A stretch of DNA of 64,000 nt from the NCBI RefSeq assembly GCF_048403405.1, contig NZ_CP183129.1. One strand, given 5' to 3'. The notes beneath the pieces were generated by a model. The model did not search any database and had not been told where the DNA came from. It saw only the letters and a list, made by a program, of their open reading frames with translations. The DNA comes from Escherichia coli. GTDB lineage: Bacteria > Pseudomonadota > Gammaproteobacteria > Enterobacterales > Enterobacteriaceae. Positions 10,823-29,660 of this stretch are shown here, one piece after another. The position numbers and the translations under genes are program-made. Every line of letters starts with the position of its first letter. Within the stretch, counting starts at the first letter, position 1.

Positions 10823-10847
10823 GATTATGTACACCCTTATGTACACG
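10823..10847. repeat. 25-bp repeat with tandem TGTACAC motifs (left copy); candidate att or arm/operator site
   Basis: gattatgtacacccttatgtacacg matches 29636-29660 (cattatgtacacctctatgtacacg) at 22/25 positions, same orientation. Confidence 0.5.
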
Positions 10848-11219
10848 TTTTTTTAAAGCGTTCAGCAATTACGCTGGTGGATGATCACGGATGGCCTGAT
10901 ATCTACAGCCGCCTTAAAAAGCTGGACCCGACCAGCATTACTGCGTATCGGGTTCGTTCGCTCTTTCTACTCGTGGCAGATGAGTTTATCGGTGTGATTT
11001 TATCGGGCGAGGGTATTGTATCAGGCATCCCCTTTTCTATGCAGATTTGCATAGTTTCGAATGGTGGCGTTATGGAAGCCTCTCATATCAGCATCATGCC
11101 CACCAGCGTGAAGTATTTTTTATTTCGCGGGTGTAAAAATTTGACGAGGCGGCGGTCCCATAAGCAATGGGTTGTAGGGATTTCGATCCCCCCTCCTGAA
11201 TGCAATTTTTCGTATATAT

Positions 11220-11400
11220 ACAAAACAGTGCGGGTTATGCGGGTTACCGGGTTATCTTAGCGTGCTAACTATTTTTTGTTCTTTAGTATCAATATGTTGC
11301 AAAATGCACTGTTCATTATTCAAGCATCGCATAACCCGCAAAACATCCCAAATAACCCGCAAACGCCCCAAAATAACCCGCAAACACATTGCTGAAAGCA
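11220..11400. repeat. iteron cluster (GCGGGTTA / TAACCCGC) in inverted sets around an AT-rich spacer
   Basis: gcgggttatgcgggttaccgggttatc at 11225-11250, then ~80 bp AT-rich, then ataacccgcaaa x3 at 11330-11395; same architecture as the site at 21590-21740. Confidence 0.55.
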
Positions 11401-12090
11401 GGGGTGGATAGTTCCACTGGTGCCACAGAACGGCTGAATACGGTAACTGTTGCTGGTGGTCTGTCCTGTTGTCGTTCCAGTCTCATCAAATTGAGAGGCA
11501 AGACAAAGTGCATTTTTGCACTATAGCCAAAGCCTCATAAAACAGAGTTACCCCCACAGGCTGGCAAACCATTACCCAACGCAATTAAGTGCGTCAGAAT
11601 CGATTACAGCGCGTTCCTGTGGCACGTTGTTGCCGTTCTCAGCAGTGAAAGGAGAGCGTGAAAAGCGCATATCTATTACTGTTGAGGGGTGTAGCGGCAT
11701 ATATCGCGAATATCCACGCCCTTAATCCCGATACCGTCACGGCGCATTGAGATCCACCAGAAGATTAAGATAGTTTTTACCTGAAATTATCCAAATAATT
11801 GTTTTAACTGATTAATTTTTCGAATATCTATTGTTAGGGAATAAATCATCAGATACACCATAAAACGACATCTTTCAGGGTGTAGAAGATGCAAAGCCGG
11901 TACTGAAGAAAAGACAAAGAATATGAATGGCTGGCCACACGATGGAAGGATTGTCCATTGAAGGATCAATCCTAATGGTATAAGTATTAATAAAACCGTG
12001 CAGGGGGCTTTTTTATCTGCGGATTCCCGCCCGGGCGGCGGTGGCATTCGTTAAAAACAAGGCCGCGAAAGCGGCCTGTGACATGTCACG

Positions 12091-12651
12091 CTACATTGAT
12101 ATATGATTCATAAAGTAGCTTAGAGATTTACTTCCCAGAAAAGAAATTTCTTTTCCTGGATATGTCGCAATAATTGAGCATGACTTATCCCCGTTAGAGG
12201 TAACAAATCCTGAATAACCTACTTGTTCTTTACCATTTTGTTGCTTGGCTAAAAAGTAGAGGTAGCTTATCTTTTTGCCCTCTGGGTAAAACTCTGCCAA
12301 ACCAGTATCGGTGATTGAATATTTTATTCTCCCGCCTTGAGTAACGTTTTCCATCTCAAGTTTAGCTATGTCTTTTCTGTTGTATTCAGCATTGATTTTC
12401 CTTTCGAAATCAATGTTGTTTTCAAATGAGTAGGAAGCAACAGTCTGAATAGATGGGAACACGTTTATCTGGATGCCTCCACAGTCGGCACAGGTATAAA
12501 GGTATGAATCAGATGGAATCCCCATAAAAGAAAACTGAGTTACCTTAAATTTATCGCTATCTCCAAAGTATTGAAGTTCGCATTTAACATTTTGCCCTGC
12601 AAAAGAAAATGCAGACATCAATATTGAAACAAAAAATATAATTGCCTTCAT
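12091..12651 (-). CDS. secreted/periplasmic protein of unknown function (AT-rich moron)
   Basis: 186-aa ORF with N-terminal signal peptide MKAIIFFVSILMSAFSFA; AT-rich codon usage unlike neighbours; immediately downstream of the giant ORF block. Confidence 0.6.
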   Translation of the reverse strand: MKAIIFFVSILMSAFSFAGQNVKCELQYFGDSDKFKVTQFSFMGIPSDSYLYTCADCGGIQINVFPSIQTVASYSFENNIDFERKINAEYNRKDIAKLEMENVTQGGRIKYSITDTGLAEFYPEGKKISYLYFLAKQQNGKEQVGYSGFVTSNGDKSCSIIATYPGKEISFLGSKSLSYFMNHISM

Positions 12652-12653
12652 TA

Positions 12654-27192: not shown

Positions 27193-27663
27193 ATCTCTAG
27201 TAACCTCTCTGATAGCTCATGAAGTTACTTAAAGTTTAGTGGTTGCCCATACAGTATTTCTATTAAGACTAGAATCTATTGAAAGAAATTATAAATCTAT
27301 TGAAAAAATACCGATCCACTGAAAGATTGCAAATGCAAGTGGGATAATTATTTTCTTTATTTTCAATTAGTTACCAGTTTAAAAAATCATTGTTTTATCA
27401 AAGAGTTATATCTTTCATCGTCATTCATCATGTTTTTACATTTCCTTTTATCTTTTATTATTCAATTGGTTGAGTCGGTTTATAATGGCTCATGATGGCT
27501 TAAAATGGCTAATGATAGCTGGCGTATCTTTTAGAGATGGGGTGATTACAGATGAACTAAGCCGAACAGATATAGCAATGGCTAGGCATAGAATTATCTA
27601 TGCTGGTGGAGATGGGTAAACAGGTAATGCCCCGCCATTGCTTTGGAGGGGCGTGAAAAGTGA

Positions 27664-28314
27664 TTAGTCGAGATCGTGGACAGCTAATAAAGCCCGTGAG
27701 ATTTTTTCTAGGAATGTGGCTTTTGCTATTCCTTTATGGGATATCCCTTCATCCTTGATTAAGGTTTCTATGTCACGGTATATAGCTGTGCGATTAGGTT
27801 TCCCATTTTGGATGTAGGAAGATGAGCCTGATTTTTTTATCAGCAGATGTACTATCAACCCCATCATTTTCATTGTCCCGTTTTCCTCATCCTGCTTTCT
27901 ATGCTGCCCACGTCCGCTGCGGTTGGTTTCTTTGATGTAGTTTACTAACTGGAGTCCTCCAAGGTTTCGGGCTTTTTCTTCCCAGCCCTTGGTGCCACGC
28001 AAATCATCAATCGCTTCTGATATTTTCTGAACAATTATTTCTGGTGTATTTGTGTCAATAAATGGGTAAGAAGCTAAGAAAATATCAAGGGCATGGCAAG
28101 GCTCGTCTTTACTAGTTTTTTCACCTCTGTACACCTTGATAGCTCTGGCAAGATGAGTTCTGACAAAATCGACATATTCGAAATTTTCCTCAGGCACATC
28201 GCTAATGCGCATAGATGGGTTTAGGCCAGCCAAGGCCACAGCCATTTCATGAGGGGTAATCGATACAGATGAACAAAGCCGTTCGATTGGCGATTTTCTC
28301 AAGATGTTGTTCAC
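27664..28314 (-). CDS. hypothetical protein (216 aa) in the int-alpA variable slot
   Basis: ORF overlapping int stop by 4 nt; AT-rich; no recognisable motif. Confidence 0.6.
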   Translation of the reverse strand: MNNILRKSPIERLCSSVSITPHEMAVALAGLNPSMRISDVPEENFEYVDFVRTHLARAIKVYRGEKTSKDEPCHALDIFLASYPFIDTNTPEIIVQKISEAIDDLRGTKGWEEKARNLGGLQLVNYIKETNRSGRGQHRKQDEENGTMKMMGLIVHLLIKKSGSSSYIQNGKPNRTAIYRDIETLIKDEGISHKGIAKATFLEKISRALLAVHDLD

Positions 28315-29579
28315 ATTTGCCTCCGGGCTTTATCGAATGGCGTTACGTTGTAGTCTTTCCCGCTTTCCAGTGCCACCAGCAGATCAGCCCACTGTGCCAG
28401 CGCAGCTTTACGCTCATCAAAATACTGATGGCGGTTATAAATCCCCTCCACACCCTTAATGCGATGATTGAGGCATCGTTCCGCTACGACAGGATCAACA
28501 CCCAATGCTGCTAAATGAGTACGTGCGGTACGCCGGAAGTCGTGAATCGTGAAATTAGGCACATCCGGCATTTCGGCGCGAACCTTAGCCAGTGCTACGG
28601 GTAAAGTGCTTTCCTGAATATGTGGGATCATTCTGTTTTGCATCTTCCTGGCTGGAAGCACCCATGCGCTATTACATGAAAAGGTGTGTAGCTCTCTCAA
28701 CCATTCAACGGCAGGAGAAGGTAGAGGTATATCAATAGGGTCTCCGTTTTTGCTGCGTTCTTCCGGCAAATGCCATACCGCACCATCTAAATCAAACTCT
28801 TCCCATCGTGCGGCGCATAACTCCATCTTACGAACGCATAGTGCCAGCAATAGCTTAAATGTCAGTTCGTTCTGGCGGCTGAATCCTTTTGCGGTGCGCA
28901 TAGCCTCGAATAGCCTGATAAGCTCATCGCGAGTTAGCCAACGGTCGCGGGAAACCTCTTTACCACCAGCATCAGATACTTCAAACGCTGAACAAGGGTT
29001 TATCTCCAGAGCGTGGCGTTTTATCCCATAGTCAAAGATACGGCGTGTCCAGCGTAATACATCTGTTGCTATCGTTGGTGCTCCTCGGTCAACGATACCT
29101 TTCAACATGTCGTCAATGTGGCGTGGCTTAACGTCCTCTACCTTCATATGCCCAATGCAGGGGTTAATATCCTTATCAATTCTCCGGCGAAGGATATCGG
29201 GATGTTTCCATCTCGGAAGTATCTGTCGCTCGAAGTATTCGGCGGCCAGATCTGAAACGCGCATGGCGTTTTTCTCAGCCTCCATTTTTGCCAGTGCTTC
29301 AGCTTTTCGTTCCTGTTTTTCTGCTGCTACGTCATAGCCAAGAGCAACTCTGGCTGACAGCTCTTTTGCTATTTCTCTGGCTTTTGATAGTGACAGTTCG
29401 GAGTAAGAGCCGATAACCATAGCCCGCTGTTTTCCTGCGAGCTTATATCGGAATCGCCAGAACGGGACTGTGTAGTTTTTGGGGTAGCAAATATAAAGGC
29501 CGTTGCCGTCTGCCTTGCCATCAAATCTGTCTCCCGCCTTTATCCATGCGCGGATCTGCATATCTGTGAGTTTTGGCAT
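28311..29579 (-). CDS. int: tyrosine recombinase/integrase, P4-type
   Basis: C-terminal catalytic region ...HDFRRTARTHL...NHRIKGVEGIYNRHQYFDERK...; start taken at MPKLTDMQIRAWIKAG (ORF track extends to 29663). Confidence 0.9.
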   Translation of the reverse strand: MPKLTDMQIRAWIKAGDRFDGKADGNGLYICYPKNYTVPFWRFRYKLAGKQRAMVIGSYSELSLSKAREIAKELSARVALGYDVAAEKQERKAEALAKMEAEKNAMRVSDLAAEYFERQILPRWKHPDILRRRIDKDINPCIGHMKVEDVKPRHIDDMLKGIVDRGAPTIATDVLRWTRRIFDYGIKRHALEINPCSAFEVSDAGGKEVSRDRWLTRDELIRLFEAMRTAKGFSRQNELTFKLLLALCVRKMELCAARWEEFDLDGAVWHLPEERSKNGDPIDIPLPSPAVEWLRELHTFSCNSAWVLPARKMQNRMIPHIQESTLPVALAKVRAEMPDVPNFTIHDFRRTARTHLAALGVDPVVAERCLNHRIKGVEGIYNRHQYFDERKAALAQWADLLVALESGKDYNVTPFDKARRQM

Positions 29580-29635
29580 TGCGAATACCTGAATATCGAA
29601 TATGGGTGTGTACATAAAGCAATGTACATGAAAGT

Positions 29636-29660
29636 CATTATGTACACCTCTATGTACACG
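29636..29660. repeat. 25-bp repeat with TGTACA(C/T) motifs (right copy), upstream of int
   Basis: Four TGTACA(C/T) motifs between 29608 and 29660; 22/25 match to 10823-10847. Confidence 0.5.

Follow-up and report, generated by a model that had tools for sequence, protein, structure and literature searches.

The attachment site (attP) of phage lambda carries arm-type sites P1, P2 and P'1–P'3 around a 7-bp overlap and is served by a heterobivalent integrase; in an attP of the lambda type, arm-type integrase sites are expected on both arms and at set distances. The locus considered here lies in a 64,000-nucleotide stretch of the Escherichia coli contig NZ_CP183129.1 (assembly GCF_048403405.1), hereafter the window, and consists of an integrated island that resembles the phage-inducible chromosomal islands (PICIs) of Gram-negative bacteria and carries a pair of 25-bp direct repeats near its two ends. 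The gene set and one-directional layout of Gram-negative PICIs were described by Fillol-Salom et al. 2018 (PMC6092414), and a preprint mentions reference PICIs integrated in yicC. For helper-embedded PICIs (HE-PICIs), attP was reconstructed by Tommasini, Mageeney & Williams 2023 (PMC10111431); that paper describes a doubled motif, tgTGTATTGCantgTGTATTGCa, in two co-oriented copies at 81 ± 2 and 132 ± 2 bp from the attP centre, proposes that it binds integrase arm domains, and says that it was not found in other PICIs. In KplE1 and P4, it has been shown experimentally that the integrase represses its own promoter, since the arm sites overlap that promoter (PMC2951348). We consider it likely that the 25-mers of the present island are doubled arm-type sites of its own tyrosine integrase, placed in the P' and P arms of attP, as judged from sequence comparison.

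The original prediction for this locus had reported two 25-mers in the same orientation, at 10823–10847 and 29636–29660, that agree at 22/25 positions, with the right copy 57–81 bp upstream of the integrase gene (int). All of this is confirmed: the pair was recovered as family D20 of a repeat search, and the int ATG at 29579 on the minus strand is the most plausible start and the one annotated in an identical RefSeq copy. Each 25-mer is made of two tandem 10-mer units at 12-bp spacing. On the left, both units (P'1, 10825–10834, and P'2, 10837–10846) read TTATGTACAC, giving the P' arm doubled motif TTATGTACACccTTATGTACAC (10825–10846, plus strand), which begins 65 bp inward of the left island junction and has no gene start nearby. 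On the right, P3 (29638–29647) is again TTATGTACAC and P4 (29650–29659) is CTATGTACAC; together they form the P arm doubled motif TTATGTACACctCTATGTACAC (29638–29659, plus strand), which ends 118 bp inward of the right junction. The further TGTACA motifs that had been noted near the right copy are likewise real: a motif search resolves them into two inverted copies (29608–29631, minus strand), here treated as candidate arm-type sites, of which P1 (29608–29617) is an exact TTATGTACAC and P2 (29622–29631) a degenerate TCATGTACAT with two mismatches.

Co-oriented direct repeats near both ends of inserted DNA, one of them adjoining int, could instead be attL and attR cores that delimit an excising unit of 10823–29660, and the mapping of the island ends bears directly on this alternative. 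The locus lies between cvrA, which ends at 8762, and dadX (30039–31109, minus strand), and the interval 8700–30100 was compared by megablast with 5,426 complete E. coli genomes. Two of these, E. coli F719 and Z1323CEC0012, carry DNA 99.9% identical to window positions 10756–29806, and at least in F719, the one examined, the near-identical copy sits between dinD and yicC. Many other genomes have the island backbone in common with different cargo, and others have the island at yicC without the adjoining segment of the window, 8763–10756, which holds a leucine-rich repeat (LRR) gene. That segment occurs, with no island beside it, in about 1,100 E. coli genomes; in GN02461 it is 100% identical and runs straight into dadX. 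The empty LRR site of GN02461 reads ...CCAGTTAATCAACATTCTGAACATGAACCCGAATCTGC..., and its sequence ...GTTAATCAACATTCTGAACATGAACCC... is interrupted in the window precisely at ATTCTGAA, the left junction of the window being ...CCAGTTAATCAACAT--TGAATCTGTTTGTAGAG... and the right junction ...GATAGCTTATTCGATATTCTGAACATGAACCCGAATCTGC.... In the copy at yicC, the island has TTATTCAATGTTCTGAATCTG to its left and, to its right, TTATTCGATATTCTGAATCTG, which continues into yicC; the empty K-12 yicC site is TTATTCGATGTTCTGAATCTG, the final yicC codons.

Aligned with an empty site (L003) and a yicC copy (L001), the attL core TTAATCAACATTGAATCTG (10745–10763, plus strand) takes its left portion from the LRR gene and its right portion from the island, with a crossover segment TTGAA at 10755–10759. 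Comparison with empty sites and the yicC copy likewise defines the attR core TTATTCGATATTCTGAACATG (29768–29788, plus strand), in which an island-derived part that mimics the yicC 3' end leads through TTCTGAA (29778–29784) into LRR-gene sequence. A G/A difference at core position 10 separates host from island origin, and the crossover must lie to the right of it; a further yicC island (L005) has an island-specific T in GAATTTG, to the left of which the crossover must lie. Polymorphisms in L001 and L005 limit the crossover to TTCTGAAT, the window junctions limit it to ATTCTGAA, and the two limits overlap in TTCTGAA, 7 bp in the middle of the near-palindrome ATTC-T-GAAT. These comparisons show a crossover in TTCTGAA, outside both repeats. 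The island so delimited, recognized by its 99.9% identity to yicC-site islands, spans 19,025 bp (10760–29784, minus strand), so that the excising unit is 19.0 kb rather than the 18.8 kb core first reported, and the reconstructed circular attP is a single region of ~260 bp. The repeats are not att cores: the DNA that is 99.9% identical to islands at another locus reaches 65–70 bp past the left repeat and about 125 bp past the right one, the true junctions duplicate a different 21-bp sequence, and the empty LRR and yicC sites lack the motif (no copy in L003, L002, L007 or L008). Comparative junction mapping already refutes this reading, to which we give almost no chance. The original prediction, which had offered it as one possibility, had also named alignment with empty-site and LRR-only genomes as a check, and it is that alignment which mapped the junctions outside the repeats.

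The doubled motifs lie inside the island, on both sides of the core and outside the crossover, and the core TTATTCGATATTCTGAATCTG differs from the site TTATGTACAC. Measured to the middle of TTCTGAA, their centres stand at distances of 79.5 and 132.5 bp, the latter for the right one. Six further relatives (L004–L006 and L009–L011), with integrases 93–68% identical in protein, keep the number, spacing and orientation of the sites. The far (P') end was read in four yicC islands (L001, L004, L005 and L006), all of which have the left doubled motif in unchanged position and orientation; the distance from the crossover to the start of P'1/P'2 is 65 bp in the window and L001 and close to that in L004, L005 and L006. 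The right doubled motif is kept in L001, L004–L006 and L009–L011. The layout common to L001 and L004–L006 comprises an inverted P1 beyond P3–P4 upstream of int, direct P3 and P4 12 bp apart, then a hairpin, then the core, and, across the core, direct P'1 and P'2, also 12 bp apart. P1 is present in all relatives examined, P2 is discernible in L004 and L005 and eroded in the others, and three more distant relatives (integrases of 86, 78 and 68% protein identity) retain P1, P3 and P4 amid strongly diverged spacers. Among the relatives the motif itself drifts from TTATGTACAC to TTGGGTACAC. Which variant is present goes with a difference at integrase residues 28–41, and L004 is mixed, with TTAT in the P arm and TTGT in the P' arm.

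The integrase (28311–29579, minus strand; 422 aa) matches Pfam Arm-DNA-bind_3 at its N-terminus (residues 4–90, 1.3e-18), followed by Phage_int_M and Phage_integrase, and belongs to phrog_1 (integrase). It is therefore predicted to be of the heterobivalent type, binding arm sites as well as the core. It is because of the position of the repeats, their conservation in relatives and this arm-DNA-binding domain that we favor an arm-site role.

Several points weigh against that role. The 22/25 identity is no stronger than that of a second, apparently meaningless pair in the same region; a consensus scan of 29400–29900 found no sigma-70-like promoter, and the minus strand read by eye gave no convincing –35/–10 pair; the integration host factor (IHF) consensus (WATCARNNNNTTR, at most one mismatch) was not found in the reconstructed attP; and the HE-PICI authors could not exclude that their motif is bound by AlpA or another DNA-binding protein (PMC10111431). 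Nor do we rely on the covariation of the motif with residues 28–41 as evidence of co-evolution, since the linkage of int to the P arm suffices to produce it and L004 is mixed.

The first of these points raises the possibility that the repeat has no function and arose by chance or as a relic of local duplication. Two direct pairs of at least 22/25 occur in 8700–30100, where 20 block shuffles gave 0.05 on average, and the second of them (18365–18389 and 27782–27806) lies in coding regions of the island and has no evident function. It serves to gauge the strength that a chance pair can reach and, because it lacks evident meaning, 22/25 identity by itself is suggestive and not conclusive. The motif is also no commoner over the whole window than expected, whether counted as the heptamer TGTACAC (9 observed, 5.2 expected) or in the degenerate form [TC]T[ATG][TG]G[TG]ACA[CT] (6 observed, about 5.9 expected). 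What a chance origin does not accommodate is where the matches fall. Five of the six degenerate matches in the window are in the arms, confined to two stretches of at most 52 bp, and in the 41-kb loci of L001, L004, L005 and L006 the matches are in the two arms only; position, orientation and 12-bp spacing are moreover kept in six diverged relatives although the spacer diverges. Clustering at both island ends, together with this conservation, settles that the repeats are real, and we regard a chance or relic origin as extremely improbable.

The possibility that the repeats are bound by the AlpA-like factor or another DNA-binding protein of the island, as recombination-directionality or operator sites, has more to recommend it but still seems improbable to us. 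The right-hand cluster does lie in the int upstream region, and the island encodes an AlpA-like helix-turn-helix protein of 72 aa (26974–27192, minus strand) that is a candidate excision and induction factor. This assignment comes from gene position and a modest PHROG match (phrog_66, "excisionase and transcriptional regulator", 3.4e-7), with a weak TIGR01764 match under the cut-off and a RefSeq annotation as a helix-turn-helix regulator. However, the motif is missing from the upstream regions of all other island genes, the alpA-like gene included: between 10900 and 29600 there is no copy at one mismatch or fewer, bar a one-mismatch match at 26649 within a Rha-family open reading frame (ORF; 26201–26899), and the degenerate scan of the same interval gave no match. 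The left copy is away from any gene start, and the AlpA of EcCICFT073 activates its own promoter with no effect on Pint (PMC6092414). A better AlpA candidate would be TGATAGCTCATGA, common to the P arm and the alpA leader, and the placing of sites on both arms at fixed distances fits arm-type integrase sites. The original prediction had suggested integrase arm or operator sites as its second possibility; the arm part stands, on position, conservation and integrase domains, and the operator part is disfavored, given that the motif does not recur upstream of island genes.

Other short repeats near these genes were noted in passing. TGATAGCTCATGA occurs at 29688–29700 (P arm) and 27210–27222 (alpA leader), and one shared 13-mer is within chance. 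Related ATGGCT/TGATAGC units at 10-bp spacing (family D2) lie at 27480–27525 and beside the core (29761–29767), and are candidate sites for the AlpA-like factor. Repeats of the ATGATAGC type were considered as AlpA sites and rejected, the 8-mer being too common to be informative and the 13-mer, shared once, being within chance.

If the repeats are indeed arm-type sites, the N-terminal domains of an integrase tetramer would bind P'1/P'2 and P3/P4, and perhaps also the inverted P1/P2; the C-terminal domains would bind the core, and the arms would fold into an intasome for integration. With the AlpA-like factor, the same intasome folding would serve excision. The four P-arm sites occupy most of the 128 bp from a conserved terminator to the int start codon, and integrase bound there would probably also repress the int promoter, by analogy with KplE1 IntS and P4 Int. 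The excised circle would be expected to read ...GATATTCTGAATCTGTTTG... / ...GCTTATTCGATATTCTGAATCTGTTTGTAGAG... at its junction, and precise excision would be expected to leave the repaired sites GTTAATCAACATTCTGAACATG at the LRR gene and TTATTCGATGTTCTGAATCTGCTCGCG at yicC.

The position of this particular copy is unusual. The normal target of the island is the last 21 bp of yicC, TTATTCGAT(G/A)TTCTGAATCTG, and the island supplies the yicC 3' end with synonymous codons. A blastn search of the complete E. coli genomes with int and its upstream region found relatives in 554 (517 of them across at least 80% of the query) at 67–99.6% nucleotide identity; among the matches listed, all those with a covered flank adjoin yicC, as do 3/3 more distant ones that were fetched. 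The window left junction is absent from all 5,426 of these genomes, and metagenome contigs gave 0 matches to the attL junction, whether or not the 2 bp that this copy lacks were restored in it. The pseudo-site in the LRR gene, TTAATCAACATTCTGAACATG, agrees with the island core at 16/21 positions and has ATTCTGAA in common with it. The junctions thus show, at the level of sequence comparison, that in this genome the island recombined with a look-alike site in the 3' end of the LRR gene. That the join falls within the same segment as at yicC argues for integrase recombination at a secondary site, as opposed to illegitimate recombination. The window contains no tRNA or tmRNA genes, so the island is not tRNA-targeting, and a search of 8700–30100 with Rfam at gathering thresholds returned no match.

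The LRR gene (9412–10758, plus strand) is therefore host DNA, truncated by the insertion, and the island does not merely adjoin it but sits inside its 3' end. Compared with the empty site L003, the protein is shortened from 478 to 448 aa by removal of the last 30 codons; the two sequences are identical up to ...PVNQH, and a TGA arises at the junction. Similarity to SlrP/SspH2 is below family cut-offs. Within the gene (9725–9907), in-frame 12-nt repeats in 11 registers, 63–75% identical, encode a stretch rich in E, N, L and Q ahead of the LRR units. The original prediction had placed the LRR gene and the segment from 8.8 to 10.8 kb outside the excising unit, which is correct for a different reason, namely the ~1,100 genomes that have the segment without the island. 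It had further seen the insertion as a composite of an older remnant and a newer element; the LRR segment is indeed, on its distribution, an old and widespread chromosomal segment, with no sign or evidence of ever having been a mobile element. In K-12-type genomes, the cvrA–dadX spacer (L008, 600–720) has lost the LRR gene and kept its last ~75 bp with downstream DNA, and also holds a short inverted piece from near cvrA (compared with window positions 8874–8890 and 29798–30040). This comparison makes the LRR locus look like an old one that K-12 has lost, and not like a recent insertion in the present genome. Loss in K-12 by site-specific excision at the pseudo-site was considered and rejected, the junction being a rearranged remnant without an att-like join.

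At the int-distal junction, the crossover segment is damaged. The attL copy of TTCTGAA is 2 bp short, leaving TTGAA, and it is this deletion that gives rise to the TGA at the end of the truncated LRR ORF; otherwise the frame would continue to 11260 (through an ORF at 10772–11260). Inferred from sequence, the deletion probably prevents precise excision of this copy. The yicC island of O157:H7 (L006, ~4273–4295) lacks the same 2 bp at its left junction, an independent loss, and exactly this deleted junction is found in 92 genomes; in L004 (~5050–5075), an 11-bp deletion abuts the same segment. A published survey described "damage" deletions that start from a fixed point in the displaced tRNA fragment and are specific to PICIs, and the attL deletions at protein-gene targets look like the same phenomenon. 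It is conceivable, though we hold this only tentatively, that a fixed attP geometry (~80 and 132 bp from a 7-bp overlap) is general to the PICI integrase lineage while the motif diversifies with residues 28–41, and that such integrases also leave small int-distal crossover deletions. If so, the deletions of 2 bp here, 2 bp in O157:H7 and 11 bp in L004 would fix the satellite in its site, off-target sites included. Separately, at the yicC island in WP5-W18-ESBL-11, an ISEc53 transposase gene and a ClbS-family gene lie between chromosomal dinD and the island left junction (L005, 5917–8901), and a second dinD homologue lies just inside the left end of the island.

The island carries int, alpA and pri-rep genes, transcribes its genes in one direction (the long ORFs are all on the minus strand) and has a dedicated att site; by its gene content it is shown to be a Gram-negative PICI-like satellite. 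A DUF927-type primase/replicase (21757–23883, minus strand) is supported by phrog_1139 (DNA primase, 2.3e-174) and by RefSeq annotation. Also encoded are a 216-aa protein without assigned function, Rha, AntA/B and Bro-type regulators, an Icd-like protein, SSB, a ProQ/FinO protein and a frameshifted PerC gene. The cargo (12091–19523, minus strand) consists of four genes whose products, of 186, 850, 565 and 873 aa, match PHROG families of virion or internal-virion proteins over the full length; one of them has an SLT transglycosylase domain, and the first 230 aa of the 873-aa protein are 66–68% identical to internal virion/head proteins of phiV10-like podophages. This cargo is not shared by related islands with the common backbone. 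Between the arm sites and the core, terminator prediction places a G+C-rich bidirectional hairpin (29708–29731), whose stem is retained in L004–L006 and L009–L011, where the loops differ and changes in the stem compensate one another; with the island at its normal site, the hairpin would serve as the yicC terminator. The 8-mer GCGGGTTA occurs 16 times in the window, against 2 expected, and forms mirror-image clusters at 11230–11381 and 21610–21732 (pairs I1 and I4 of the repeat search), several copies being 21 bp apart. One cluster, between the primase and ssb genes, is origin-like; the second is at the extreme left of the island, and together they flank the stretch from ssb through the cargo.

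These results have some practical and comparative consequences. With the real island ends fixed, annotation can treat the LRR gene as a host gene that has been truncated, and not as island cargo, and the doubled motif offers a simple sequence signature for delimiting PICIs of the yicC type. A rare off-target insertion of a chromosomal PICI is also documented; a large published survey reported no off-target relatives of fis- and hpt-type PICIs. The repeats themselves are an unremarkable part of a known kind of element and reveal no new mechanism; the points of modest interest are the off-target insertion and the extension of a doubled attP motif, at about the same spacing and with a different sequence, to a second PICI integrase clade. 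The similar spacing in a second clade supports the view that these are integrase arm sites.

Several known systems resemble this one in part. As in lambda, the predicted arm sites flank a core with a deduced 7-bp overlap in an attP of about 260 bp, and a secondary site sharing the overlap is used, secondary-site integration having published support; in contrast to lambda, this integrase is P4-like with Arm-DNA-bind_3, no IHF consensus was detected in attP, and the core replaces the 3' end of a protein gene. KplE1 (IntS/TorI) and P4 (Int/Vis) likewise have int transcribed toward the adjoining att site and arm-type sites that overlap the int upstream region, but they target tRNA genes and have unlike arm-site sequences, and the sites here are candidates. 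PICIs of the EcCICFT073 type share int, alpA-like and pri genes, unidirectional transcription, PerC-type and Bro/Ant/Rha genes, a size of 10–20 kb and a dedicated chromosomal att site; this copy differs in its four genes resembling those for podophage internal virion proteins and in sitting off-target. The likeness to HE-PICIs lies in a tandem motif of 12-bp period present as two co-oriented copies, one on each side of the crossover, in a spacing of 79.5 and 132.5 bp (centre to centre) against the published 81 ± 2 and 132 ± 2 bp from the attP centre, and in a P4-like integrase beside attP in both. The motif here is TTATGTACAC or TTGGGTACAC, whereas theirs is TGTATTGC; HE-PICIs target prophage late genes and this island yicC (here the LRR gene), and this island has two extra inverted sites, P1 and P2, upstream of int. 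Set beside the HE-PICI motif, the yicC clade shows that what the two have in common is geometry, not sequence.

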